Shown in pieces: positions 20,036-33,831 of a DNA stretch of 64,000 nt. The DNA is from Pseudomonadota bacterium (lineage in GTDB: Bacteria; Pseudomonadota; Alphaproteobacteria; Rhizobiales; Xanthobacteraceae), in NCBI GenBank assembly GCA_040387615.1, contig JAZKDK010000021.1, forward strand, positions 72,311-136,310, given 5' to 3'. The position numbers and the translations under genes were made by a program. How positions within the stretch are numbered: position 1 is the stretch's first letter; each line of letters opens with the position of its first letter. Below the pieces are notes generated by a model. The model was not told the origin of the DNA and searched no databases. It saw only the letters and a list, made by a program, of their open reading frames with translations.

Positions 20036-20939
20036 AGCCAAATCACGCGACACGGTGCTGATCGTCGACGATTCGCCGGAAACCCTGCGCATGCTGACCG
20101 ACGCGCTCGACGGCGCCGGCATGACGGTGATGGTCGCGCTCGATGGCGCGTCGGCGCTACGCATCGGCGAACAGATCGTGCCGGACATCATCCTGCTCGA
20201 CGCCGTGATGCCGGGGATGGACGGTTTCGAGACCTGCCGCCGTCTCAAGCGCGAAGCCAAGCTCGCCGGTGTCCCGGTGATCTTCATGACGGGCCTTGCC
20301 GAAAGCGAGCATATCGTGCGGGGGCTGGAGGCCGGTGGCGTCGACTACGTGACCAAGCCGATTGTCATTGTCGAGATGCTGGCGCGGATCAAGGTACACC
20401 TTGCAAACGCCCGGCTGACCCAAAGTGCGCGCGCCGCACTGGACGTATCAGGGCGTTACCTGTTTGCGGTGGATCATCGTGGGCGCATCATCTGGGCAAC
20501 GCCGCAGGCGGAGAAGCTGGCGCGCGCCAGAGGCGACGAGAAATTCGAACTGCCGGAGCCCTGGCTCGACTGGCTCGACCAGATGCACCGGGGAATGGCT
20601 GAATCGAAATCGCCGCCCGCGATCTCATTGCGCGATGAGAAGCTCCGACTTCAATATATGGGCCGGCTCGGCGCGAACGAATTCCTGCTGCGGCTGGCCC
20701 GGGACACCAGTTCGGATTCGCCAGCGGAATTCAGCAAGGAGCTGGGGCTGACCAGCCGCGAGGGAGAAGTGCTGTCCTGGCTGAGCAAAGGCAAGACCAA
20801 TCGCGACATCGCGCAGATCCTGGGCCTCAGCCCGCGCACCGTCGACAAGCATCTTGAGCAGATTTACGCCAAGCTCGGCGTCGAAAATCGAACCGCTGCG
20901 GCGGCGGTCGCGAGCAACGCGAGCCGCCAGCGGATGTAA
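20025..20939 (+). CDS. Response regulator, N-terminal REC plus C-terminal LuxR-type HTH
   Basis: LIVDDS, LLDAVMPGMDGF, DYVTKP; LTSREGEVL...GKTNRDIAQILGLSPRTVDKHLEQIYAKLGV; overlaps kinase stop. Confidence 0.92.
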   Translation: MIIEAKSRDTVLIVDDSPETLRMLTDALDGAGMTVMVALDGASALRIGEQIVPDIILLDAVMPGMDGFETCRRLKREAKLAGVPVIFMTGLAESEHIVRGLEAGGVDYVTKPIVIVEMLARIKVHLANARLTQSARAALDVSGRYLFAVDHRGRIIWATPQAEKLARARGDEKFELPEPWLDWLDQMHRGMAESKSPPAISLRDEKLRLQYMGRLGANEFLLRLARDTSSDSPAEFSKELGLTSREGEVLSWLSKGKTNRDIAQILGLSPRTVDKHLEQIYAKLGVENRTAAAAVASNASRQRM

Positions 20940-20950
20940 GTATTATTGTG

Positions 20951-20997
20951 AGCGTGATCTTGTCCGAAAACCGGTTCCCACTTTTCGGGATCACGCT
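20951..20997. repeat. Short palindromic intergenic repeat, family B
   Basis: agcgtgatc...ccgaaaaccggttcccacttttcgg gatcacgct. Confidence 0.8.
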
Positions 20998-21771
20998 TTA
21001 GCGTTCAGCGAACGCCTTCTCGACAACGAAATCGGCGGGCTCGCCGTGGTTGCCTTCCACGAAGCCACGATCCTCGAGCAGCTTCTTGGTGTCCAGCAGC
21101 AGCGCGGGGCTTCCGCACATCATGACGCGATCCTTGGCAGCGTCGAGCTGCGGCAAGGAGATGTCGTCGAACAGTTTGCCGGATGTAATCAGGTCGGTGA
21201 TGCGGCCGCGATTGCGGAACGGGTCACGCGTCACGGTCGGATAATAGATCAGCTGGTTGCGCACCATGTCGCCGATCATCTCGTCCTGCGGAAGCTTCTC
21301 GGTGATCAGCTCGCCGTAGGCCAGTTCCCTGACGTGACGGCAGCCGTGCAGCAGCACGACCTTCTCGAAACGCTCGTAGGTCTCGGGGTCCTTGATGACG
21401 CTCAGGAACGGCGCGAGGCCGGTGCCGGTGCCGATCAGATAGAGGTTGCGGCCGTCGGTCAGGTTGTCGATTACCAGCGTGCCGGTCGCCTTGCGGCTGA
21501 CGATGATCTCGTCGCCTTCCTTGAGATGCTGAAGGCGCGAGGTCAGCGGGCCCTCGGCCACCTTGATCGAGAAGAATTCGAGGTTCTCTTCGTAATTCGC
21601 GCTCGCGACGCTGTAGGCGCGCAGCAGCGGCTTCTCGCCGACCTTCAGTCCGATCATGGTGAACTCGCCATTGCGAAACCGGAACGAGGAATCACGCGTG
21701 GTCGTGAAGCTGAAAAGGTTGTCGGTCCAGTGATGGACGCTCAGAACGGTTTCCTGATTGAAGTTGCTCAT
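20998..21771 (-). CDS. fpr: Ferredoxin(flavodoxin)-NADP+ reductase
   Basis: RAYSVAS, GPLTSRLQ, GTGTGLAPF, MMCGSP; start set at ATG 21771 (MSNFNQE). Confidence 0.93.
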   Translation of the reverse strand: MSNFNQETVLSVHHWTDNLFSFTTTRDSSFRFRNGEFTMIGLKVGEKPLLRAYSVASANYEENLEFFSIKVAEGPLTSRLQHLKEGDEIIVSRKATGTLVIDNLTDGRNLYLIGTGTGLAPFLSVIKDPETYERFEKVVLLHGCRHVRELAYGELITEKLPQDEMIGDMVRNQLIYYPTVTRDPFRNRGRITDLITSGKLFDDISLPQLDAAKDRVMMCGSPALLLDTKKLLEDRGFVEGNHGEPADFVVEKAFAER

Positions 21772-22019
21772 AACCGGACCCATGCTCTTGCAATCGGTGA
21801 GCGCACAATCGCCGGACTTGCGGGCGGTCACGCCTCACGCAGAACTTCATTTGCCAATGAATTTTGCTGGATGGCCTGCATCGCAGGCGAAGACGGTGGC
21901 AGCATTCACGACGGGAGTGAAATAGCCGAATTTACGTTTCCGGTCAATTACATACCGCGCCTGCGTCATGCCCCGGAGGCAGACCGGCGTTGCATTCTAA
22001 GATCATGTTCCACAGGAGA

Positions 22020-22055
22020 AATTTCCTCCCGCACGGAGCCCGCCGGGAGGAAATT
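22020..22055 (-). terminator. Stem-loop after the mvaA-SBP operon
   Basis: 12-bp stem aatttcctcccg / cgggaggaaatt about 60 nt downstream of the SBP stop. Confidence 0.5.
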
Positions 22056-22117
22056 ACACTCAATCCAAACGTCCGGAACACCACGGCCGGGCGAGCGCAC
22101 GGCCATGGAAACCGGCC

Positions 22118-23338
22118 CTACTTCTTCACCATCGGGCAATTGCCCTCGGCTATCGGCCGGAATGCGTCCGCCGCCGGGATCGTTTCAACCAGCTTGTAGA
22201 AATCCCAGGGTGCCTTCGATTCCGCCGGCGTCTTCACCTGGAACAGATACATGTTGTGGATGTGACGGCCGTCCTCGCGGATCGTGCCTTCGCCGAACAG
22301 CGGGTCCTTCGACGGCATCTCCTTCATCTTGGCGACGACCTTTTGCCCGTCCGTCGTATTCGCGGCGGCTGCGGCGCGCAGATAGTGCAGCGTGCCGGCA
22401 TAGACGCCCGCCTGAATTGCCGTCGGCCGCTTGCCGCCGCCCACCGCTGCGGTAAAGCGATCGGCGAACTTGCGCGTGCCTTCGTTGGTGTCCCAATAGA
22501 AACCTTCCGTCAGATAAAGGCCCTTCGCGCCCTGTAGACCAATGGCGTTGACGTCGGTGACCTGCATCAGCAGCGCCGCCAGTTCCTGCCCGCCGGCCTG
22601 AATGCCAAACTCTGTTGCCTGCTTCACGGAGTTGACGGTGTCGTTGACGGCGTTAGCGAGCGCAACGATCTTGGCCTTGCTGGCCTGTGCCTGCAAAAGG
22701 AACGACGAAAAGTCCGATGCGCCCGGCGGATGCCGCACGCTGCCGAGGATCTTTCCGTTTTCCGCCTTGACGACATCGGACGCATCTTTTTCAAGCGAAT
22801 GGCCGAAAGCGTAGTCCGCCGTGACGAAGAACCATGTGTCCTTCTTTGCCTTCAGCAAAGCCAGAGCAGTGCCGTGCGCCAGCGCCCAGGTGTCGTAGGT
22901 CCAGTGCACGGTGTTGGGCGAGCACTTCTCGCCGGTCAGCAGCGACGAACCGGGGCCCGATGCAATGAACGCGGTTTTCGAACCGCGTGTGGCTTCCTGC
23001 ACCGCCAGTGCCACCGACGAGAACGGCACGTCGAGGATCGCATCGATCTTGTCGATGTCCATCCAGCGCCGCGCAATAGCGCCGCCGATGTCGGCCTTGT
23101 TCTGGTGATCGGCCTGAACGAGTTCGACCTTGATGTCCGGCTTCTCGGCCTTGAAATCCTCGATCGCGAGACGTGCGGCGGCAACCGAACCTGAGCCCGT
23201 GGAATCCGTCGCGATGCCGGTGAGGTCAGTCAGCACGCCAAGCTTGATCGTGTTGTTGGCAATCTGCGCACTTGCTGGCGTCATGAGCGCCAACAGCATC
23301 GCTGCGCCTGTCAGAAAAGCCGATTTCGATTTACGCAT
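22118..23338 (-). CDS. Branched-chain-family ABC substrate-binding protein (no adjacent co-oriented permease)
   Basis: Signal peptide, IKLGVLTD, ADHQNKADIG, CSPNTVHW, TADYAFG, GTIREDGR; start set at ATG 23338. Confidence 0.88.
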   Translation of the reverse strand: MRKSKSAFLTGAAMLLALMTPASAQIANNTIKLGVLTDLTGIATDSTGSGSVAAARLAIEDFKAEKPDIKVELVQADHQNKADIGGAIARRWMDIDKIDAILDVPFSSVALAVQEATRGSKTAFIASGPGSSLLTGEKCSPNTVHWTYDTWALAHGTALALLKAKKDTWFFVTADYAFGHSLEKDASDVVKAENGKILGSVRHPPGASDFSSFLLQAQASKAKIVALANAVNDTVNSVKQATEFGIQAGGQELAALLMQVTDVNAIGLQGAKGLYLTEGFYWDTNEGTRKFADRFTAAVGGGKRPTAIQAGVYAGTLHYLRAAAAANTTDGQKVVAKMKEMPSKDPLFGEGTIREDGRHIHNMYLFQVKTPAESKAPWDFYKLVETIPAADAFRPIAEGNCPMVKK

Positions 23339-23393
23339 TATTATCCTCCCGGTTGAATTTCTTATGTGGGTTGTCCGGTCTCGCCGGAATGTC

Positions 23394-24677
23394 CTAGCGT
23401 CGAATGGTCTCCAATACCTCCTGCGCGACATCGATACGCACCGTCGCGCGTTCGACCAGCACCTTCGCCACAGCCTCGACTTCATCGCCGATAGCGCCGG
23501 CCATGATCGCGATGTTCTGCGCATGAAGCGCCATGTGACCCGACTGGATGCCCACCGTGGCGAGCGCCTTCAGCGCCGAGAAATTCTGCGCAAGCCCAAC
23601 TGCCGCGATGATGCGCGCCAGCCGTTCCGCCGTGGTGACGCCGAGAATCTTCAGGCACGCCTGCGCGGTGGGATGAATCTTGGTCGCGCCGCCGATCAGG
23701 CCAACCGCCAGCGGCAATTCGATGGAGCCTGAGAGATCGCCGTTCTTATTGACCTCGTAGCGCGTCAGGCTGGTGTAGCGTCCACCGCGCGCCGCATAGG
23801 CATGAGCGCCTGCTTCCACCGCGCGGGTATCGTTGCCGGTCGCGAGGATGACGGCGCTGATGCCGTTCATGATGCCTTTGTTGTGGGTCGCGGCGCGATA
23901 CGGATCGGCTTCGGCGAACTGATAGGCACTGATGATGCCGTCGCGCACGCTTTCGCCGCCGATGTCGTTGAGTTTCCACACCGCATGGGCACGTGCGAGT
24001 CGCCGGTCGGCAAGATTCGACAAGATGCGCAGGAACACGCGCCCGCCGCTCCATGTGGCGATATGCGGCGCGATTTTCTCCGCCATGGTGTTGACGGCGT
24101 TGGCGCCCATCGCATCGCGCGTATCGACGATCAGATGCGTGATGACCATCGGCCCGCCGAGCGTATCGAGAATGCGTACCTCGACATCGCGGAAGCCGCC
24201 GCCGAGTTTCACCAGCAGAGGATCGCAGGCATCGCAAATCGCCTTGATCTCGTCGCGCTTTTCCAGAAGGCGAAGCCGCGCGGCATAAGGATCGGGCACA
24301 TCGACGGCCTGCACCTGCGCGATCATCAGCGTGCCGGACACCGACGTCGTGAAGCCTGCATCGTAGGTCTGTCGCGACGCGTTGCAGACCGCGGCGACGA
24401 CGGAGGATTCCTCGGTCGCCATCGGGATCAGCACGTCTTCACCATCGACCTTCACATTGGTCGCGATGCCGATCGGCACATTCATCGTGGCGATGACATT
24501 TTCGATCATCTTGTCCGCGAGTTGCGGCGACAGATTGCCCATATCGGCCAGATGAGCCGCGGTCGCGGGATCGAGACCCGCGAACGAAGCCACGAGATCG
24601 AGCCGTTCCTGCGGCGACTTGCGATGAAATCCGGCGATCCGCGAACTGCGGTTCGCGCCATGCTTGGCGACAGTCAT
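23394..24677 (-). CDS. mvaA: Class II (degradative-type) hydroxymethylglutaryl-CoA reductase
   Basis: ENVI, PMATEESSVVAA, DAMGANAVNT, ILSNL, ATHNKGIMNG, DTRAVEAG and GIQSGHMALHA class II motifs. Confidence 0.9.
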   Translation of the reverse strand: MTVAKHGANRSSRIAGFHRKSPQERLDLVASFAGLDPATAAHLADMGNLSPQLADKMIENVIATMNVPIGIATNVKVDGEDVLIPMATEESSVVAAVCNASRQTYDAGFTTSVSGTLMIAQVQAVDVPDPYAARLRLLEKRDEIKAICDACDPLLVKLGGGFRDVEVRILDTLGGPMVITHLIVDTRDAMGANAVNTMAEKIAPHIATWSGGRVFLRILSNLADRRLARAHAVWKLNDIGGESVRDGIISAYQFAEADPYRAATHNKGIMNGISAVILATGNDTRAVEAGAHAYAARGGRYTSLTRYEVNKNGDLSGSIELPLAVGLIGGATKIHPTAQACLKILGVTTAERLARIIAAVGLAQNFSALKALATVGIQSGHMALHAQNIAIMAGAIGDEVEAVAKVLVERATVRIDVAQEVLETIRR

Positions 24678-24802
24678 TATTCAGCGTCTCCCAGACCGAA
24701 GTCCTCTTGAGGGGATTCTCGGTCGCGGAAACTGTATGGTGATGGGGGTACACCACAAGGAACACTTTGCACAATTTCAGGAAGGTCCGTACCATTCGCA
24801 CC

Positions 24803-26209
24803 ATGGGTACAGTTCAACATTCCGGCGGCAGAGCAGCGCGATCGCGCGTCGAAACCATCATCGATGCGATCGTTGCGCGGATCGAACACGGCGCGATCCG
24901 GCCCGGCGAGCGCCTGCCGTCGATCCGCGGCGCATCGGAACTGTTCAGCGCATCAAAAAATACCATTGTCGATGCTTATGAACGGCTGGTCGCGTCGGGG
25001 CAGATCGAAAGCAAACCCGGCTCAGGTTTTTTCGTCTCCCTTCATCGGCCCAAACGCGCGGAGACCGCCGAACCCGCCAAGGTCGGTGCCGTCGACAGCG
25101 TCTGGCTGCTGCGCGAGCAACTTGAAAAGCGTCACGAAGTGCGCGTCGGCGACGGCCGCCCGCCGGCGGCGTGGATGGAAGGTTCGGAAGTCGGTCCATA
25201 TCTGCGTCCGGTCAGCCGGCCCGGACAACGCAATCTTCCAGAGAGCTACGGCAGCCCCTATGGCCTGCTGTCCTTGCGTCAGCGCATCGCGGGTCTTCTC
25301 GCCGAGAGATCGATCGGCGCGGAGCCGACGCAGGTTCTTTTGACTCAAGGCGCGAACGACGCGCTCGACATGATCGTGCGTCAGTATGTCGAGCCCGGCG
25401 ATCCCGTCCTGGTCGACAGTCCCGGCTACTATCCGCTGTTCGGCAAGCTGCGGCTCGCCAAGGCACGGTTGATCGGTGTGCGGCGGACCGTGGATGGGCC
25501 GGACCCGGACGATCTCGCCGCCAAGGCCGCCAGCACTGGCGCGCGAATGTTCTTCACGCAGTCGCTGGCGCACAATCCGACGGGCTGCTCGATCACGCTG
25601 CCGGTCGCCTATCGGCTGCTGCGCACCGCGACCGAGCACAATTTACGCATCGTCGATTCGGATCCGTTCGCCGACGTACTGTCCAACACCAGCCCCCGCC
25701 TCGCCGCGCTCGATCAGCTCGATCGCGTGATCTATGTCGGCACATTCGCCAAAACCCTCTCCGCCAGTCTTCGTTCGGGATACATCGCCGCCAATGTCGA
25801 TACTGTCGCGCGGCTGGCTGATCTCAAGATGATCACGCGCGCCAACAGCTCGGGCTATATCGAGCAGATCATCTACGACCTGATCACCAGCGGGCGTTAT
25901 CGCGGCCACCTCAAGCGACTGAGCGGCCGCATCGAAGCTGCCACCCGCCAGGCGAACGACACATTGTCACGCCTCGGCCTCCCAGTGTTCGGCCAGCCGC
26001 GCGGTGGATTTTATATGTGGTGCGAACTGCCCGGACATATCGACGACACGCAGCTTTCGCGTGTCGCCGCCGAGCGCAGCATTCTGCTGGCGCCGGGGTC
26101 GGCCTTCAATCCGGACGCGACGCCTGCGCGTCCCGCGATGCGCGTCAATATCGCGCATGTCAGCGATCCGCGGTTCGCAAGCTTCATGGATGAACATCGC
26201 GCGCCGTAG
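24803..26209 (+). CDS. MocR/GabR-family regulator (GntR wHTH plus PLP aminotransferase-like domain)
   Basis: GERLPSIRG...SKNTIVDAYERL...GSGFFV; GTFAKT PLP-lysine motif; start set at ATG 24803. Confidence 0.92.
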   Translation: MGTVQHSGGRAARSRVETIIDAIVARIEHGAIRPGERLPSIRGASELFSASKNTIVDAYERLVASGQIESKPGSGFFVSLHRPKRAETAEPAKVGAVDSVWLLREQLEKRHEVRVGDGRPPAAWMEGSEVGPYLRPVSRPGQRNLPESYGSPYGLLSLRQRIAGLLAERSIGAEPTQVLLTQGANDALDMIVRQYVEPGDPVLVDSPGYYPLFGKLRLAKARLIGVRRTVDGPDPDDLAAKAASTGARMFFTQSLAHNPTGCSITLPVAYRLLRTATEHNLRIVDSDPFADVLSNTSPRLAALDQLDRVIYVGTFAKTLSASLRSGYIAANVDTVARLADLKMITRANSSGYIEQIIYDLITSGRYRGHLKRLSGRIEAATRQANDTLSRLGLPVFGQPRGGFYMWCELPGHIDDTQLSRVAAERSILLAPGSAFNPDATPARPAMRVNIAHVSDPRFASFMDEHRAP

Positions 26210-26469
26210 CGGTTTTCCCGGTCGCGTCGCCGGATGACCGTGCAAGAAATCCAAACAGGCTGCGGTGAATTCGTGGACATCACGCAATTTCGGCATCGCA
26301 ACATTAATGCATGGCAATGTTCCGGCCGCGCAAAACGAAAATTCCGTTTCAAACAGACCCGTGCTGCAATCATCCGATCTTTGCTTGACTTGAACTTGTC
26401 CGGCCAGCAGTCTGTGAACGCAAATAAAAAGCACCGAACACGAATTCGGATGCATCAGGGAGAAACGTC

Positions 26470-27687
26470 ATGAAGTCATTTCTCAGCCTTCTCGCAACAG
26501 CGAGCATCGTCAGCGCCGGCGCCCTTCTCACTCCAAGTCCCTCATCAGCCCAGCAACCCATCAAGATCGGCGTTCCAACTTCGGTCCAGCTTCAGGTCGG
26601 GCGCGACACGCAGAACGCCATTAAGATGGCAATCGAGGACATCAACAGCAAAGGCGGCCTCGTCGGCCGCAAGCTTGAAATGGTTGTCGCGGATGAAACC
26701 GAGAACCCCGAACAAGGTATCGCGGCGATCAAGAAGCTCACAGCCGACGACAAGGTCGATGTGCTGATCGGCGGGTACACCAGCGGCGTGACGCTGGCCC
26801 AGTTGCCCCACATTTCCAATTCAAAGACGATCTATCTTGGAGTCGGCGCAGCATCTCCCGCGATCACCGCAAAGGTGAAGGCCGACTACGAAAACTACAA
26901 GTACATCTTCCGGGTTTCCCCGATCCATGCCGGCCATCAGGCCCGCGCGCTGGTCGATTTCATCAGCGGCAAGCTCAAGGGCGAGATGGGCCTGAAGAAG
27001 ATCGCCATCGTCGGCGAGAATGCCAAGTGGGTGCAGGATCTGGTGCCTATCCTGAAGAAGGGCGCCGTCGAAGGCGGCACCGAAGTGCCGATGTCCGAAT
27101 TCTTCGACACCTCGACGTCGGACTTCTCGCCATTGTTCGCCAAGGTCAAGGCCAGCGGCGCGCAGTATCTGATCGTGATCCTGTCACATGCGTCGTCGGA
27201 CATCTTCGTCAAGCAGTGGCATGACGCGCAGGTGCCGATTCCGATCGGCGGCATCGACGTCAAGAGCCAGGACGCTGACTTCTTCACCCGTGTGAGCGGC
27301 AAGGCGCTGTCCGAGACCGTCGGCCTGTTCGCGACCCGCGCCGCACTGACGCCCAAGACGATTCCATTCTGGGATGAATTCGTGAAGCGCTATGGCACCG
27401 CGCCGGTCTACACCGGCGTCGGCGCTTACGATGCGATCTACGTCTACGCAGAAGCCGTGAAGCGAGCCAACTCGGTCGAGCCGAATGCGGTGATCAAGGA
27501 ACTCGAGAAGACGGACTATGTCGGCATCGCCGGCAAGATCCAGTTCGACGAAGTCCACGATGTTAAGACGGGACCTGGCCTGCAAAATCTTCTGTTCGCG
27601 CAGTGGCAGAAGGACGGTGCCCGGATCGTGGTCTGGCCGAAGGCTTCAGAAACGGGAAAGATGATCCCGCCGCCCTGGATGAACTGA
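26470..27687 (+). CDS. Branched-chain-family ABC substrate-binding protein
   Basis: Signal peptide, IKIGV, INSKGGLVGRKLE, GGYTSG. Confidence 0.9.
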   Translation: MKSFLSLLATASIVSAGALLTPSPSSAQQPIKIGVPTSVQLQVGRDTQNAIKMAIEDINSKGGLVGRKLEMVVADETENPEQGIAAIKKLTADDKVDVLIGGYTSGVTLAQLPHISNSKTIYLGVGAASPAITAKVKADYENYKYIFRVSPIHAGHQARALVDFISGKLKGEMGLKKIAIVGENAKWVQDLVPILKKGAVEGGTEVPMSEFFDTSTSDFSPLFAKVKASGAQYLIVILSHASSDIFVKQWHDAQVPIPIGGIDVKSQDADFFTRVSGKALSETVGLFATRAALTPKTIPFWDEFVKRYGTAPVYTGVGAYDAIYVYAEAVKRANSVEPNAVIKELEKTDYVGIAGKIQFDEVHDVKTGPGLQNLLFAQWQKDGARIVVWPKASETGKMIPPPWMN

Positions 27688-27707
27688 GCAGTTTGACGTC
27701 GTGAGAA

Positions 27708-27738
27708 CGCCGGCCGGTAACAATCTTACCGGCCGGCG
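27708..27738 (+). terminator. Intra-operon perfect 13-bp hairpin after the SBP gene (attenuator or mRNA stabiliser)
   Basis: cgccggccggtaa-caatc-ttaccggccggcg. Confidence 0.55.
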
Positions 27739-27792
27739 ATCCTGAAGGCTCGCCTTCCCCTTACGCACGAAAACAGCAACAGCAGGCGGTTT

Positions 27793-28647
27793 ATGCTCGA
27801 GATCCTGATTTACGGCGCTGTGTCCAGCGCGATCTACGCGATGCTCGCGGTGGGCTTCACGCTCATCTTCGGTGTCGCCCGCATCCTCAATCTCGCGCAC
27901 GGCGCATTCTATGCCCTTGGCGCATATGCGGCTTATGTCTTCACATCCCTGCTGAATCTGCCGCTGTTCATCGCGGCACCGCTGGCCGTCCTTCTGGTCG
28001 CGGGGTTTGGCGTGCTGATGGAGCGGTTTCTGGTGCGGCCGTTGCGAGCATCGCAACTCGCGGTGCTGATGATCACGCTCGCCGTATCACTGGCGGTCGA
28101 ACAGGCGCTGTTCATCACCTTCGGTTCCGAATACAGAAACGTGCCATCCTTCGTCGCTGACAAGGTCTCAATCGGCGGTGTCGATATCGGCGGGCAGAGA
28201 TTGCTTGCGCTGGTTGCCGGCGTTCTGGTGCTACTGACGCTGTGGCTCTTCATTCAACGCACGCGCCTCGGCGCGGCGATTCTCGCGGTGTCGCAGGATC
28301 CGGAAGCCGCGCAGTACATGGGCATTCCGACCAACCGCATTTTCTCCATCGTGATGGCGATCTCGGCGGGCACCGCGGCGCTCGCAGGCGTGCTGGTCTC
28401 GCCGTTCCTCACCGTGCAGCCGACCATGGGCTTGCTGCCGATGGTGAAGGCCTTCGCCATCGTCATCGTCGGCGGGCTCGGATCGATCCCAGGCAGCATC
28501 ATCGCGTCGCTGATCCTCGGCTATTCCGAGACTATCGTCGCCTATCTCGTTTCGACGTCATGGACCGAACTGGTTTCGCTTGTCGCGGTCGTTATCACCC
28601 TCATGATCAGACCGTCCGGGATTCTCGGCCGGCGGGCGGCGTTCTGA
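27793..28647 (+). CDS. ABC permease (LivH-like)
   Basis: GFTLIFGVARILNLAHGAFY, GGLGSIPG, RPSGILG. Confidence 0.92.
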   Translation: MLEILIYGAVSSAIYAMLAVGFTLIFGVARILNLAHGAFYALGAYAAYVFTSLLNLPLFIAAPLAVLLVAGFGVLMERFLVRPLRASQLAVLMITLAVSLAVEQALFITFGSEYRNVPSFVADKVSIGGVDIGGQRLLALVAGVLVLLTLWLFIQRTRLGAAILAVSQDPEAAQYMGIPTNRIFSIVMAISAGTAALAGVLVSPFLTVQPTMGLLPMVKAFAIVIVGGLGSIPGSIIASLILGYSETIVAYLVSTSWTELVSLVAVVITLMIRPSGILGRRAAF

Positions 28648-28648
28648 C

Positions 28649-29578
28649 ATGCGGCAGATTTCTTCGATTGACGTTGCTGGCGGTATCGCTGTGGTGGCCG
28701 TGCTTGCACTCGCCCCCGTGTTCGTGGCCAGCAACTATCTCACCGGCGTGCTGACCGTCTGCGTGATCTACGGCATCTGGGCTTCGAGCTGGGACTTCAT
28801 GTCGGGCCTGACCGGCCGCGAGAATTTCGGCCACTCGCTGTTCATCGGCGCAGGCGCCTACACCTCGGGATTCATGGCCACGATCTGGTTCACGAATCCG
28901 TGGTACAGCCTGCCGGCGGCGGTCGTCATCGCGGTCATCTTCAGTCTGATCGTCGGCTTCCCGACATTGCGCCTGCGTGGTCCTTATTTCGCGCTGGCCA
29001 TGCTGTCGGCCTCCGCGATCCTGCAACGCCTCTGCCTGATCTTCTGGGAACAGACGGGCGGCGAGGAAGGCCTCTACGGTCTTGAGCCGTTGATCCGAAA
29101 TCCCCTGCACTACTACTGGTTTGTGCTGGCGATCCTTGTCGTCACCGTCATCGTGCTGGCGCTGCTCGCGCAATCGCACTGGGGCCTGTTGCTGCGCGCC
29201 ATTCGCGGCGACGAAGCGACCTGTCAGGCGGCGGGCATCAACGTGACCTTCTACAAGATCGCCTCGCTCGCCATCAGCGCGGCCTTTGCCGGGCTCGGCG
29301 GCGCGCTTTATGCGCACTACCAGCTCCAGGTCAGCCCGCCGCTGTTCTCGGTGGTGGTGTCGATTACTGTCATCATCATGGTCTATGTCGGCGGCATCGG
29401 TTCGATTTACGGTGCTGCGATCGCCGCGATCCTGCTCACGTTGCTCACCGAGCTGCTGCGCGGCTTCGGCGAATACCGGCTCTGGATCTACACCCTGACC
29501 CTGATGCTGATCCTGTTCTTCCTGCCGAACGGCCTGATCGCGCCGCTCTGGCGCAGAATGACGGAGCGCTTCCGATGA
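28649..29578 (+). CDS. ABC permease (LivM-like)
   Basis: LRLRGPYFAL, GGEEGL, RAIRGDE, LPNGL. Confidence 0.92.
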   Translation: MRQISSIDVAGGIAVVAVLALAPVFVASNYLTGVLTVCVIYGIWASSWDFMSGLTGRENFGHSLFIGAGAYTSGFMATIWFTNPWYSLPAAVVIAVIFSLIVGFPTLRLRGPYFALAMLSASAILQRLCLIFWEQTGGEEGLYGLEPLIRNPLHYYWFVLAILVVTVIVLALLAQSHWGLLLRAIRGDEATCQAAGINVTFYKIASLAISAAFAGLGGALYAHYQLQVSPPLFSVVVSITVIIMVYVGGIGSIYGAAIAAILLTLLTELLRGFGEYRLWIYTLTLMLILFFLPNGLIAPLWRRMTERFR

Positions 29579-30318
29579 CCGCGCTTCTTGAAGTCAACGA
29601 CGTCACCAAGCGTTTCGGCGGCCTCACCGCCGTGAAGAACGCAACCTTCACGCTGCAGAAAGGCGAGTTCACCGGAATCCTCGGACCGAACGGCGCGGGC
29701 AAGACCACCCTGTTCAATATGCTCACCGGCTTTATGGCGCCCACATCCGGAGCTGTCACATTCAACGGTGAAGCTGTGGAAGGACTCGCGCCCTACAAGG
29801 TCGTCAACCGCGGCATGGCGCGGACCTTCCAGCTCTGCCGTCCTTTTGTGGGCATGAACCTGCTGGAGAATGTTCTCGTCGCCTGCATGTCGCCACGCGC
29901 CCATGTCGACAAGGACAAGGAAGAACGCGCGCGCCACCTCCTCGAACAGGTAGGCCTCGGCGGACGCGGGCTGGAGCCCGTCGAAACGTTGCCTTACGGC
30001 GACCTGCGACGGCTCGAAATTGCGCGCGCGCTGGCGACCCGGCCCGATCTCTTGTTGCTCGATGAACCCTTCGCCGGATTGGGCAGCAGCGAGATCGAAC
30101 CGCTTGCGCAACTGATCAAACGCCTGCATCGCGAGGAAAACCTGACCATCCTTCTGATCGAACACAAGCTGCGCGAGTTCATGGCGCTGGTCTCCCGGGT
30201 GATCGTGATGAATTTCGGCGAGATCATCGCCGTGGGGCCACCCGACGAGATCGTGAAGAACCCGAAAGTGATCGAAGCCTACATCGGAAAGACGGAGGAC
30301 GCTCATGCCTCTGCTTGA
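29575..30318 (+). CDS. ABC ATP-binding protein (LivG-like)
   Basis: GPNGAGKTT, LPYGDLRRLEIARAL, LLLDEP, IEH. Confidence 0.92.
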   Translation: MTALLEVNDVTKRFGGLTAVKNATFTLQKGEFTGILGPNGAGKTTLFNMLTGFMAPTSGAVTFNGEAVEGLAPYKVVNRGMARTFQLCRPFVGMNLLENVLVACMSPRAHVDKDKEERARHLLEQVGLGGRGLEPVETLPYGDLRRLEIARALATRPDLLLLDEPFAGLGSSEIEPLAQLIKRLHREENLTILLIEHKLREFMALVSRVIVMNFGEIIAVGPPDEIVKNPKVIEAYIGKTEDAHASA

Positions 30319-31012
30319 AGTCTCCGATCTGCGCGTCAGCTACGGCAAGGCGCTCGCCATCGAGTCCGTTTCGATCAAGGTCGACAAGGGTGAGCTGATC
30401 GGCGTGCTCGGCCCCAACGGCGCAGGCAAGACCACGCTGTTGAAAGCCATCTCGCGCTCCATTCCCTCGCAAGGCACGTTGACCTTCAAGGGCCAGTCCC
30501 TCGACGGCGTCGCGCCCTACGACGTGGTGGCGCGCGGCATCTGCCACTGTCCCGAGGGCCGCAAGCTGTTCTCGGAACTGTCGGTGCTGAAGAACCTGCA
30601 ACTCGGCGCCTACCTGCGCAAGAACAACGCCGAGATCAATGCCGATCTGGAGCGCGTGTTCACGCTGTTTCCGGTGCTGCGCGAGCGGCAATGGCAGCAA
30701 TCCAGCACGCTGTCCGGTGGCGAGCAGCAGATGGTTGCGATCGGCCGCGCGCTGATGGGACGACCGGAGTTACTGCTGCTCGATGAGCCGTCGGTCGGCA
30801 TCGCGCCACGGCTGAAGGGCCTGATCTTCGATGCGATCCAGCAAATCCGGAAGGACGGCACCGCCATCCTGATTGTCGAGCAGGACGCGACCTCGACTTT
30901 GCGAATCACCGACCGCGTCTATGTCCTCGAGCATGGCCGCACCATTCGCGAGGGCACGCCGAAAGACCTCGCGGGCGATAAGTACATTCAACAGGTTTAT
31001 CTTGGTGTGTGA
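30305..31012 (+). CDS. ABC ATP-binding protein (LivF-like)
   Basis: GPNGAGKTT, LSGGEQQM, LLLDEPS, VEQ. Confidence 0.92.
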   Translation: MPLLEVSDLRVSYGKALAIESVSIKVDKGELIGVLGPNGAGKTTLLKAISRSIPSQGTLTFKGQSLDGVAPYDVVARGICHCPEGRKLFSELSVLKNLQLGAYLRKNNAEINADLERVFTLFPVLRERQWQQSSTLSGGEQQMVAIGRALMGRPELLLLDEPSVGIAPRLKGLIFDAIQQIRKDGTAILIVEQDATSTLRITDRVYVLEHGRTIREGTPKDLAGDKYIQQVYLGV

Positions 31013-31040
31013 CGAAGCGCCAAACGCCGCGCCTCGAATC

Positions 31041-31114
31041 CGTCATGGCCGGGCTTGTCCCGGCCATCCACGTCTACTTTCTCAGCCAGCGTCCAAGACG
31101 TGGATGCCCGGGAC
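31041..31114. repeat. REP-like palindromic intergenic repeat, family A (right end decayed)
   Basis: cgtcatggccgggcttgtcccggccatccacgtc...gacgtggatgcccgggac; homologous to 42842 and 59333. Confidence 0.8.
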
Positions 31115-31163
31115 GATCTTGATAAGCTGAATCTTCAAATTACCTCGACACGAAACCGCCGCG

Positions 31164-31559
31164 TTACTTCTTCTCCAGCGCGCCTTCGGCCTTGAGCACT
31201 TCGTGCGCGGCCTTGAAGGCCTCGAGGCCAGCCGGAATGCCGCTGTACACGGTGGCGTGCAGCAGCACTTCCTTGATCTCTTCGACGGTCACGCCGTTGG
31301 TCAGTGCGCCTTTGACATGGAGCTTGATCTCGTTGGGCGCTTTCAGTGCGGTCAGCATGGCGAGATTGAGCATGCTGCGGGTCTTGCGATCGAGACCCGG
31401 CCGCGTCCAGGCGTAGCCCCAGCACCATTCGGTGGTGATGTTCTGGAACGCCATCATGAAATCGTCAGCCTTGGCGATGCTGCCGTCGACGTAGTCCTTG
31501 CCAAGAACGTCACGACGGACGGCCAGACCCTTTTTGAATTGTTCGCTTTCACCGCTCAT
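31164..31559 (-). CDS. Carboxymuconolactone decarboxylase (CMD/AhpD-like) family protein
   Basis: GLAVRRDVLG, WTRPGLDRKTRSML, LHVKGALTNG, YSGIPAG; start set at ATG 31559. Confidence 0.88.
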   Translation of the reverse strand: MSGESEQFKKGLAVRRDVLGKDYVDGSIAKADDFMMAFQNITTEWCWGYAWTRPGLDRKTRSMLNLAMLTALKAPNEIKLHVKGALTNGVTVEEIKEVLLHATVYSGIPAGLEAFKAAHEVLKAEGALEKK

Positions 31560-31669: not shown

Positions 31670-32659
31670 CTAGTTTCCCTTAGCCCCCGACGCCTGAATA
31701 ACCGGCGACCATTTCGCAACCTCAGCCTTGAGATGGGCGGACAGCGCCTGCGGGGTCGCCTGCTCCGGCTTCACCGGCTCGATGCCGAGCGCCGCCAAGC
31801 GCTCGATGACTTTCGGATCTTTCAGCGCGCCCTGCAAAGCATCGCTCAGCGTCTTCTGGACATCAGCCGGCAATCCCTTGGGCGCCCACATCGCGTGCCA
31901 GGCTGCCACCTCGAAGCCCTTGAGGCCGACTTCGTCGAGCGTCGGCAGGTCCGGAAGAATCTTCAGCCGCTCCTTTGTGGTCGCGGCATAACCCTTGATC
32001 TTGGAATCCTTGATCTGCGCCGTGGTGGTTGTGGTCTGGTCGCACATCATGTCGAACTGGCCGCCGAGCAAATCCGACATTGCCGGGCCGGTTCCGCGGT
32101 AGGACAAGGCCGTCATCTGGGTGTTGATCGCGCTCATGAACATGATCGCGCACAGGTGCGACGCAGAGCCGATGCCCGCATGGGCATAAGTGACCGCGGT
32201 TTTCTTCTGCTTGATCCAGTCGATCAGGTCCTTGGCCGTCTTCGGCTCCAAACCCGCCTTGCCGACGATGGTCATCGGCACATCCGCGATGCGGCCGATG
32301 GAATCGAAATCGTCGATCACGTTGTAGCGCAAGTTGTCGTAGAGCGACGGCGCGGTCGCCTGCGCGATGTGCCAGACCGTCACCATGTAGCCGTCGGCGG
32401 GAGATTTCGCGACGCGGGTCATGCCGATCGTGCCGCCCGCCCCGCCGACATTCTCGACCACGATCTGTTGACCCAGCGTTCGTCCCATCGACTCCGCGAT
32501 GAGGCGGGAGACACCGTCCGTCGGCCCGCCCGCCGCAGCCGGAACGATCAAGGTGATCGGGCGCGACGGAAAGCCTTGTGCTGCGGCCGATCCGATTGCC
32601 GACATCGACAGTAACGTCACGGCAACCAAGCCGGCAAACCCAACGAACAGCTTCCGCAT
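31670..32659 (-). CDS. Tripartite tricarboxylate transporter substrate-binding protein (TctC/Bug family)
   Basis: FPSRPITLIVP.AAGG.TD, VENVGGAGGTIG, GIGSASHL, YRGTGPAM.DLLGG; start set at ATG 32659. Confidence 0.92.
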   Translation of the reverse strand: MRKLFVGFAGLVAVTLLSMSAIGSAAAQGFPSRPITLIVPAAAGGPTDGVSRLIAESMGRTLGQQIVVENVGGAGGTIGMTRVAKSPADGYMVTVWHIAQATAPSLYDNLRYNVIDDFDSIGRIADVPMTIVGKAGLEPKTAKDLIDWIKQKKTAVTYAHAGIGSASHLCAIMFMSAINTQMTALSYRGTGPAMSDLLGGQFDMMCDQTTTTTAQIKDSKIKGYAATTKERLKILPDLPTLDEVGLKGFEVAAWHAMWAPKGLPADVQKTLSDALQGALKDPKVIERLAALGIEPVKPEQATPQALSAHLKAEVAKWSPVIQASGAKGN

Positions 32660-32748
32660 GGCGTCCTCCCTTGATGTGTTTCCTTGTCTTCTCTTTTTAT
32701 TCTTTGGCTTGTCGGTCCCGGCTCTGCGGCCGGCTTTAGCTGTCTTGT

Positions 32749-33831
32749 CTAGTTTTGCTGGTTGTCTCCGGCCAATGCGTCGCATACGGCCTTGGTGACG
32801 TCGGCGGTTCTTGCTTTTCCGCCCAGATCGGGCGTGTGCAGCGATTTATCCGCCGTCACTTTTTCGATCGCCCGCATTAGCCGCGCCGCGGCGGACGGTT
32901 CACCGAGATGCTCCAGCATCATCACACTCGACCAGAATGTACCGATCGGGTTTGCTATCCCCTTGCCGGTGATATCGAAGGCCGAACCATGGATAGGCTC
33001 GAACATGGATGGAAACTGGCGCTCGGGATTGAGATTGGCAGTCGGCGCGATGCCGAGCGATCCAGCCAGTGCTGCGGCCAGATCCGACAGAATATCGGCG
33101 TGCAGATTGGTCGCGACGATGGTGTCGAGGGTTTCAGGCTTGAGCGTCATGCGCATGGTCATGGCATCGACCAGCATCTTGTCCCATGTGACGTCGGGAA
33201 ATTCGCGGGCAACCTCGGCCGCGATTTCGTCCCACATCACCATCGCATGACGCTGGGCATTGGACTTTGTCACCACCGTCAGGAATTTGCGCGGCCGTGA
33301 ACGCGCCAGTGCGAACGCGAAGCGCATGATGCGCGCGACGCCTGCGCGCGTAAACATCGACACATCAGTGGCGACCTCCTCGGGCAATCCCCGATGCACA
33401 CGCCCGCCGACGCCGGCATATTCGCCTTCGGAATTCTCGCGCACGATCACCCAATCCAGTTCTGGACCGGAGACGTTACGCAGCGGGCTGACGATGCCCG
33501 GCAGAATCCGCGTCGGGCGGACGTTGGCGTACTGATCGAACGGCTGGCAGATCGCGAGCCGCAGGCCCCACAACGTGACGTGATCGGGCACGTCGGGTGC
33601 GCCTGCGGAGCCGAACAGGATCGCATCGTGAGTCTTGATGAGGTCGCGTCCGTTGTCCGGCATGAACGCGCCGGTCTTCTTGTAGCGCTCCGATCCCCAA
33701 TCGAAATGATCGAACGCGAACGTGAAACCGCCGTCACGCTTCGCGCAGGCGGTGAGCGCTTCCACGCCCGCGGAGATGACCTCGGAGCCGATGCCGTCGC
33801 CCGGAATGGCTGCAATTCGATAAGTTTTCAC
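32749..33831 (-). CDS. Tartrate dehydrogenase/decarboxylase (D-malate dehydrogenase family)
   Basis: IPGDGIG, LWGLRL.ICQ.FDQYANVRP, RENSEGEY, KSNAQRH, MFEPIHGSAFDI. Confidence 0.9.
   Translation of the reverse strand: MKTYRIAAIPGDGIGSEVISAGVEALTACAKRDGGFTFAFDHFDWGSERYKKTGAFMPDNGRDLIKTHDAILFGSAGAPDVPDHVTLWGLRLAICQPFDQYANVRPTRILPGIVSPLRNVSGPELDWVIVRENSEGEYAGVGGRVHRGLPEEVATDVSMFTRAGVARIMRFAFALARSRPRKFLTVVTKSNAQRHAMVMWDEIAAEVAREFPDVTWDKMLVDAMTMRMTLKPETLDTIVATNLHADILSDLAAALAGSLGIAPTANLNPERQFPSMFEPIHGSAFDITGKGIANPIGTFWSSVMMLEHLGEPSAAARLMRAIEKVTADKSLHTPDLGGKARTADVTKAVCDALAGDNQQN

Follow-up and report, generated by a model that had tools for sequence, protein, structure and literature searches.

Organization of the locus

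A candidate cassette for the scavenging of mevalonate was identified in the genome of an Afipia bacterium (assembly GCA_040387615.1), within a window of 64,000 nucleotides of contig JAZKDK010000021.1 to which all coordinates given without a contig or locus prefix refer. The cassette contains three genes. The gene mvaA (23394-24677, minus strand), the gene that follows it (22118-23338, minus strand) and the divergent gene mocR (24803-26209, plus strand) encode a class II NAD-type HMG-CoA reductase (HMGR; HMG, 3-hydroxy-3-methylglutaryl) of 427 amino acids, a solute-binding protein (SBP) of the Peripla_BP_6 Liv/HAAT type of 406 amino acids, which is a candidate mevalonate binder, and a MocR regulator with a GntR winged helix-turn-helix and a fold-type-I aminotransferase-like domain, respectively. 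An HMGR-SBP pair divergent from a MocR regulator had been described in an earlier note made from the sequence alone, and all three genes were recovered at the positions given there.

The mvaA and SBP genes are separated by a spacer of 55 nucleotides (23339-23393, minus strand), as the earlier note had measured, in which a GGAGG motif precedes the SBP start codon, ATG at 23338. No terminator-like site was found in this spacer. A hairpin with two 12-nucleotide arms lies 3' of the SBP stop codon (22020-22055, minus strand; -25.8 kcal/mol, z -3.2), and none of 200 shuffled sequences folds as well; its U-tail is weak (UUUCUCCU). Because the spacer lacks a terminator-like site and a strong hairpin stands past the SBP stop, mvaA and the SBP gene are predicted to form a two-gene operon, of which this hairpin is the probable end. 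No Rfam riboswitch or leader was found in 20800-31200 at E-values up to 0.1, and a scan of 20800-27000 with the sigma-70 consensus, which is uninformative for an alphaproteobacterium, returned no promoter.

The SBP matches PF13458 (Peripla_BP_6, E 1.6e-101), as expected of a Liv/HAAT-type binding protein. Its N-terminus, MRKSKSAFLTGAAMLLALMTPASA, appears signal-like when read directly off the sequence and ends in ASA-Q. Among solved structures, 3I09 comes closest (E 3.5e-110), with about 50% identity across the entire mature protein. 3I09 and 3N0W, two Burkholderia “branched-chain amino acid-binding” proteins from structural genomics, belong to the same SBP subfamily; they are not shown to be orthologs of the Afipia SBP, because they are no closer to it than its six in-genome paralogs (47-54% identity).

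HMG-CoA reductase

The product of mvaA matches PF00368 from end to end (profile positions 2-368 of 368, E 5e-110) and scores 464.8 bits against TIGR00532 (cut-off 260). It contains a full-length soluble HMG-CoA_red domain without a membrane anchor, as is characteristic of class II, and is the sole HMGR in the assembly, with 98% identity to the HMGR of A. birgiae. The closest solved structures are the HMGRs of Pseudomonas mevalonii, Delftia acidovorans and Burkholderia cenocepacia (E 1e-132 to 1e-128), the P. mevalonii enzyme (1QAX) being the closest relative (E 3.6e-132). In the alignment with 1QAX, the equivalents of the catalytic residues Glu83, Lys267, Asp283 and His381 (P. mevalonii numbering) are identical, and the motifs ATEE, HNKG, GNDTR and GHMALH are retained together with DAMGAN, in agreement with the earlier note, which had listed the catalytic motifs as intact. 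The corresponding query residues E90, K267, D283 and H381 are invariant or nearly so in the HMGR alignment. Two further residues, Asp146 and Leu148, said to have been recognized by Friesen et al. in 1996 as the determinants of NAD preference in P. mevalonii HMGR, are also retained (CDPLL in the query, KDQLL in P. mevalonii).

The model TIGR00532 also names biosynthetic HMGRs of Gram-positive bacteria, so its label “degradative” is by itself no evidence of direction. The case for the oxidative direction is one of gene context and not of the TIGR name, and it is from this context that the enzyme would be expected to work oxidatively in vivo. In the HMGR of Ruegeria pomeroyi, the equivalent residue Asp154 sets the preference for NADH, as seen in the result with D154K (PMC12292504). 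The enzymes of the Gram-negative clade (P. mevalonii, Delftia and B. cenocepacia) have been reported as NADH enzymes, and activity on mevalonate and HMG-CoA in vitro has been described for the HMGRs of P. mevalonii, B. cenocepacia, D. acidovorans and R. pomeroyi (PMC13488460; PMC12292504).

In one Afipia genome, G004, Tyr294 of the HMGR ortholog (L027:8123-9400, 87% identity) is replaced by an in-frame TAG (GAHA*AARSG), with intact SBP and MocR genes beside it. Either the gene has recently become a pseudogene or the stop codon is a sequencing error. The HMGR gene is intact in G006, the closest relative of G004.

MocR regulator and control region

The open frame of mocR starts at TTG 24767; 13 of 13 relatives share the ATG at 24803, which is likely the start of the protein. 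The domains PF00392 (E 9e-13) and PF00155 (E 1.6e-26) give the architecture of the MocR subfamily. The protein reaches the cut-off of none of the named NCBIfam types (PdxR, GabR, EhuR, rhizopine MocR, YczR and PtsJ), the best being PdxR with 213.5 bits against a cut-off of 320. The MocR proteins linked to HMGR elsewhere are 38-73% identical to the Afipia protein, whereas its closest in-genome paralog shows 27% identity; the HMGR-linked regulators therefore constitute one orthologous group. The lysine K317, in the motif GTFAKTLS, aligns with the pyridoxal 5'-phosphate (PLP) lysine of 2EGY, and binding of PLP is predicted. N258, D287 and R324 align with PLP-contacting residues of aminotransferases, and these three residues, K317 and the C-terminal R447 are invariant in 16 HMGR-linked MocR orthologs. 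By analogy with aminotransferases, R447 is suggested as a residue that could hold a carboxylate.

The control region between mocR and mvaA (24729-24815) is a block of 87 nucleotides that is nearly invariant in a phylogenetic footprint of 12 Afipia genomes and Bradyrhizobium, with diverged flanks. An 8-mer, ACTGTACC/GGTACAGT (with at most one mismatch), is common to all 13 non-redundant mocR-side control regions, which come from four classes; in a shuffle control (60 shuffles) the best 8-mer reached 7-10 of the 13 regions. The boxes are usually arranged as an inverted pair, 9-12 nucleotides apart, with extra copies. The Afipia boxes (24731-24738, 24747-24754, 24759-24766, 24787-24794 and 24806-24813) are more degenerate than those of the other control regions, and a GGTACAGT without mismatch overlaps the conserved ATG (24803). 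This 8-mer is a candidate operator box of MocR.

Exact copies of the box number 13 genome-wide. Two inverted-repeat patterns have eight and seven sites in the genome, one of each in the mocR-mvaA control region, and no site of either pattern lies beside the HMG-CoA lyase gene, the candidate permease sets or SBP2, the binding protein of the neighbouring transporter set (all described below). A genome scan for at least three boxes (at most one mismatch, within 120 bp) returned a single site, C2:21446-21534 on another contig; the scan is insensitive, and the Afipia operator itself escapes it. The neighbours of this site are housekeeping genes (a TPR protein and the Der GTPase), and it was rejected as a member of the MocR regulon and attributed to chance. 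The regulon of MocR appears to be purely local.

Other mevalonate genes in the genome

In the assembly, which is 94.9% complete, no HMG-CoA synthase scores over the cut-off (best 28.9 bits against 360), and neither mevalonate kinase nor diphosphomevalonate decarboxylase was found. Five other Afipia genomes with the cassette, all near-complete, also lack mvaS and mvk, so the absence of these genes is not an assembly gap. Genes of the 2-C-methyl-D-erythritol 4-phosphate (MEP) pathway, encoding DXR and two copies of IspH, are present. Judged by this gene content, the Afipia bacterium would be unable to make mevalonate. The earlier note had proposed scavenging rather than biosynthesis and had named a full mevalonate biosynthetic pathway elsewhere in the genome as evidence to the contrary; the proposal came through the genome search, in which synthase, kinase and decarboxylase were not found.

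A sole HMG-CoA lyase scores over the cut-off. Its gene (G000:C2:256059-256952) lies on another contig than the cassette and is the last gene of a liu cluster, which encodes the MCC-beta carboxyltransferase, an enoyl-CoA hydratase, the MCC-alpha biotin carboxylase and the lyase. The suggestion that a lyase is borrowed from leucine catabolism is thus borne out. The earlier note had also stated that HMG-CoA synthase, mevalonate kinase, IDI and HMG-CoA lyase are missing from the window. This holds for synthase, kinase and lyase among the open reading frames scanned, those of the part from 16.6 to 33.8 kb, and IDI was not searched for. No lyase gene stands beside the reductase gene among these frames, unlike in an operon of the mvaAB type.

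Distribution of the cassette

Twenty-five Afipia genomes (this assembly and 24 others) were compared. HMGR is present in 12 and absent from 13 of them, and orthologs of the SBP (87-100% identity) occur in exactly the 12 HMGR-bearing genomes; the genomes without HMGR contain only SBP paralogs, of at most 62% identity. The SBP and MocR genes flank the HMGR gene in the same arrangement in all nine Afipia loci that were fetched. The genus thus offers a natural control, with genomes of 12 species carrying the cassette and 13 lacking it.

A stand-alone trio, with mocR divergent from the HMGR gene and the SBP gene after the latter, was also found in Xanthobacter autotrophicus, Tardiphaga, Bradyrhizobium sp. 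U87765 and the genome GCA_003427375. The SBP of these trios has 406 amino acids and begins 50-80 nucleotides after HMGR (50-53 in Xanthobacter, GCA_003427375 and Tardiphaga). It is 74-80% identical to the Afipia SBP, as against the 47-54% of the six in-genome paralogs. The flanks of the four trios are wholly different, and no Liv permease genes are present near any of them. Because the trio travels with different flanks and without Liv genes, it is the trio that forms the conserved unit, and the SBP is an orphan. Conservation of the HMGR-SBP-MocR arrangement, a check that the earlier note had called for, was therefore seen both within and beyond the genus. In Tardiphaga sp. (L114:2966-4427), the HMGR-adjacent MocR is called as two pieces of 370 and 141 amino acids, which suggests a frameshift or a miscalled start.

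Neighbourhoods of HMGR were further compared in 80 loci, one genome per species, with recurrent neighbours found by clustering and by Pfam searches on representatives. A MocR with 40-96% identity to the Afipia protein is present in 15 of the 80 loci (Afipia, Bradyrhizobium, Azospirillum, Pseudoroseomonas, Marinobacter, Vreelandella, two Rhizobium, Curvibacter, Comamonas, two Variovorax, Bordetella, Caballeronia and Gordonia). In 14 of these its gene is divergent from HMGR or from a transporter-HMGR operon, and in Pseudoroseomonas it lies after HMGR on the same strand. The pair spans the alpha-, beta- and gammaproteobacteria and the actinobacterium Gordonia. No orthologous MocR was found at the archaeal, Chloroflexi and other loci of the set, where HMGR is presumably biosynthetic.

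A carboxylate importer stands beside HMGR in most of the 15 MocR loci and in several loci without MocR. The HMGR-linked transporters are a tripartite ATP-independent periplasmic (TRAP) transporter DctPQM (four loci), a TctA-type permease with a small partner (eight loci), a TctC-type binding protein alone (two loci) and, in the rest, a Liv-type SBP or set. An HMG-CoA lyase (40-59% identity) adjoins HMGR in nine loci, which identifies HMG-CoA as the product. The combination of a fixed enzyme and regulator with swapped importers, and often with a lyase, points to a unit for the uptake and catabolism of mevalonate.

Paralogous 3I09-like SBPs are encoded a few kb from HMGR in Variovorax (L102:3631-8461 and L107) and in Xanthobacter tagetidis (L062:4190-6378). 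These homologs (45-52% identity) are no closer to the Afipia SBP than its in-genome paralogs and were rejected as orthologs. They accompany an enoyl-CoA hydratase and, in the Variovorax loci, also an AMP-binding acyl-CoA ligase; together, these genes may supply a further CoA-dependent route for a related acid.

Permease of the orphan binding protein

The operon ends past the SBP gene and contains no LivH, LivM, LivG or LivF of its own. The closest permease genes lie 4.1 kb away, behind mocR, in a complete Liv-type ATP-binding cassette (ABC) set recognized with Pfam (SBP2, LivH, LivM, LivG and LivF; 26470-31012, plus strand; LivHM at 27793-29578 of the window), which has its own binding protein, SBP2, and stands outside the conserved core. 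The genome encodes 45 Peripla_BP_6 proteins, among them those at C2:8177-9436, C3:181947-183215, C3:198324-199736, C14:103961-105316, C26:72914-74128 and C44:18850-20211, and 30 LivH/LivM sets, each set with its own SBP within 4 kb, so the sharing of permeases must be common here.

The SBP of the cassette is one of seven members of a 3I09-like subfamily. Five members have no permease nearby and two adjoin permease sets, at C2:9463-11347 and C3:178443-180337. This suggests a pool of specialised SBPs that feeds one or two shared permeases. Closely related SBPs are the ones that tend to use a permease in common, as is the case for LivJ/LivK and HisJ/ArgT, and by this analogy the C2 and C3 sets would be better candidates than the adjacent Liv set.

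The adjacent Liv set, which the earlier note had put forward as a lender of permeases, is one possible partner and is not the favoured one. The need to borrow stands in principle, the SBP being an orphan; the choice of this particular set found weak support, with evidence against it. On its side, orthologs of the set occur only in trio-bearing Afipia genomes (10 of the 12), a different complete Liv set occupies the same position in G004 and G006, and in Comamonas a Liv set after mocR is the only transporter near HMGR. Against it, no similarity could be detected between SBP2 and the HMGR-linked SBP, the closest solved relatives of SBP2 are amino-acid binders such as 3IP5 and LivJ/LivK, and two opposite-strand genes lie between mocR and the Liv set in G001 and G017. 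The idea that mocR and the Liv set share a transcript was rejected in view of this insertion and of the gap of 261 nucleotides between them in the window. The insert (L025:10645-13576, and the matching place in L026) comprises two minus-strand genes, for proteins of 629 and 344 amino acids.

Proposed pathway and alternative explanations

The cassette is probably a unit for the uptake and oxidation of mevalonate, that is, for its scavenging. In the proposed pathway, the secreted SBP would capture (R)-mevalonate in the periplasm and pass it to an ABC permease of the Liv type whose genes lie outside the operon. Once inside the cell, mevalonate would meet the NAD-dependent HMGR of the cytoplasm. 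This enzyme, working oxidatively, would convert mevalonate, CoA and two NAD+ to HMG-CoA and two NADH, and the lyase of the liu cluster would split HMG-CoA into acetyl-CoA and acetoacetate. MocR would bind the intergenic ACTGTACC/GGTACAGT boxes and control the mvaA-SBP operon and probably its own gene. We infer mevalonate as the ligand of the SBP, and likewise the identity of the permease, the effector of the regulator and the sign of its control.

Several observations weigh against this proposal. The lyase gene is unlinked to the cassette, and the genome-wide box scans found no MocR box near it. G004, a species representative, carries the premature TAG in HMGR. Because the Afipia genomes are kin, a single gain or loss of the cassette, or two such events, may be all that lies behind its presence and absence in the genus, and the counts of co-occurrence are then not independent. 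Finally, mevalonate has a carboxylate and no amino group, yet MocR retains every PLP-binding residue. The earlier note had raised this puzzle, and it proved to be both real and general, MocR being a conserved partner of HMGR across classes with the PLP-binding residues invariant throughout.

In one alternative, the same architecture serves another substrate, a mevalonate-like and perhaps amine-bearing compound, or the effector of MocR is an amino compound, for instance one imported by the adjacent Liv transporter of the amino-acid type, and mevalonate is not the physiological signal. Such an explanation would account for the invariance, in 16 orthologs, of the residues of the PLP site, including the Schiff-base lysine, and of the C-terminal arginine; it also agrees with the resemblance of SBP2 to amino-acid binders (3IP5, LivJ/LivK) and with the Liv set that follows mocR in Afipia, in G004 and G006 (as a non-orthologous set) and in Comamonas. 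It is nevertheless unlikely. Four HMGRs of the clade act on mevalonate and HMG-CoA in vitro, the lyase that adjoins HMGR in nine loci fixes HMG-CoA as the product, most partner transporters are of the TRAP or TctA types that are typical for carboxylates, and in four genera or genomes no Liv set accompanies the trio. A role of the SBP as a sensor partner, for example in presenting a ligand to a chemoreceptor or kinase, with mevalonate entering otherwise, is less probable still and would be rather surprising. An SBP that has no permease of its own and travels without one, in a genome with 45 binding proteins for 30 permease sets, is compatible with that role, but surplus SBPs more usually share a permease (LivJ/LivK and HisJ/ArgT are general examples), two subfamily paralogs adjoin permease sets able to serve all seven members, and complete transporters occupy the equivalent position in other taxa. 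Reductive use, in which HMGR would turn leucine-derived HMG-CoA into mevalonate as a redox valve or for export and the SBP would have an unrelated role, is very improbable. The reaction is reversible, the liu cluster makes HMG-CoA and the “degradative” label of TIGR00532 is no proof of direction; however, no gene for a mevalonate-consuming enzyme was found, HMGR is predicted to be co-transcribed with a periplasmic SBP of the import type, importers of three families are linked to HMGR in other taxa, and the adjacent lyases of those taxa would compete for the same HMG-CoA.

If the cassette does scavenge mevalonate, its regulator may call for an unusual mode of sensing. All characterised MocR effectors are, to our knowledge, amines or PLP itself. 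The signal may be an amine-free hydroxy-acid or a pathway intermediate, for example mevaldehyde or acetoacetate, and its sensing would then bypass the external aldimine that usually forms with an amine. In favour of a mevalonate-responsive MocR, the regulator is tied to HMGR across four classes, with the PLP lysine and the C-terminal arginine invariant. It is a tentative suggestion, with somewhat less than an even chance, that the HMGR-linked MocR group is a natural mevalonate-responsive PLP-type transcription factor and, jointly, that the orphan SBP of Afipia is the first mevalonate binder of the ABC class.

Relation to known systems

The mvaAB system of P. mevalonii resembles the Afipia cassette in having an HMGR of the same clade and in the proposed chemistry, from mevalonate via HMG-CoA to acetyl-CoA and acetoacetate. 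It differs in that the Afipia lyase is encoded in the liu cluster on another contig, an ABC-type SBP gene takes the second position, and the regulator is a MocR. The described activator in P. mevalonii is reportedly the H-NS-like MvaT.

A regulon of the MocR “Daci_0288” has been predicted by Suvorova and Rodionov (2016, PMC5320631, supplementary table). In it, MvaA is combined with the TRAP transporter FcbT1-3 in three species (Silicibacter pomeroyi, Oceanicola batsensis, Bordetella petrii) and with two hypothetical proteins in Delftia acidovorans; mevalonate is not discussed in the main text of that paper (PMC5320631). A divergent MocR/HMGR pair with a transporter is common to this regulon and the Afipia cassette, and the Comamonadaceae and Bordetella loci have the operator box in common with Afipia and a MocR 39-43% identical to the Afipia protein. 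The Daci_0288 table differs in containing no member of the Bradyrhizobiaceae/Xanthobacteraceae and no ABC-type binding protein. The Afipia MocR probably belongs to the same group, judging from its divergent arrangement, the common operator box and a similarity to the members that is closer than that to its paralogs. The HMGR-linked TRAP (DctPQM) and TctA modules likewise combine the same enzyme, and usually the same MocR, with a carboxylate importer. They are unlike the Afipia cassette, in which the importer is represented by an orphan Liv-type SBP only, the membrane and ATPase parts being encoded elsewhere.

The pairing of mocR and mvaA is thus already in the literature; what is new is the transporter solution with an orphan Liv-type SBP and the reliance on the liu lyase. 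A literature search on MocR with mevalonate, mevalonate with TRAP transporters or SBPs, and bacterial mevalonate catabolism returned nothing relevant in the library searched, and no paper was found that treats the effector of this MocR, an importer of mevalonate in bacteria or the form with an ABC-type protein. There are said to be old papers on mevalonate transport in Pseudomonas sp. M. The putative mevalonate-scavenging module is widespread and experimentally untouched.

Scavenging would explain the lone HMGR of bacteria that use the MEP pathway as an entry point for feeding on mevalonate from other organisms by way of the leucine pathway. As far as the literature search showed, a bacterial mevalonate importer has never been identified experimentally, and the Afipia/Bradyrhizobium/Xanthobacter form offers for this purpose a soluble SBP of 40 kDa with a solved relative of 50% identity, 3I09. 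Engineered or growth-based mevalonate sensors were found in the literature, but no natural mevalonate-responsive regulator. The MocR described here, with its defined operator, is a candidate for such a regulator and, if it proves to be one, would stretch the rule that MocR proteins read amines through PLP.

Neighbouring genes

A ferredoxin-NADP(+) reductase-like gene (20998-21831, minus strand) lies further downstream of the mvaA-SBP operon and is a separate unit. It is syntenic with the cassette in seven of the seven fetched loci of the close Afipia clade (at least 94%), but does not stand next to it in G004, in G006 or in the other genera; it is probably a mere neighbour. At the stop-codon end of this gene, before a response-regulator gene, a short element (20941-21005, minus strand) gives sub-threshold Rfam matches to fragments of the Brucella small RNAs CI408 and CI27 (33 and 27 bits, respectively, below gathering). 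It probably represents a terminator or repeat element common to alphaproteobacteria.

On the other side of the cassette, past the Liv set, an open reading frame of 371 amino acids without an NCBIfam match (31670-32785) adjoins a gene (32749-33831, minus strand) that encodes a tartrate dehydrogenase/decarboxylase equivalog (TIGR02089, 554 bits).

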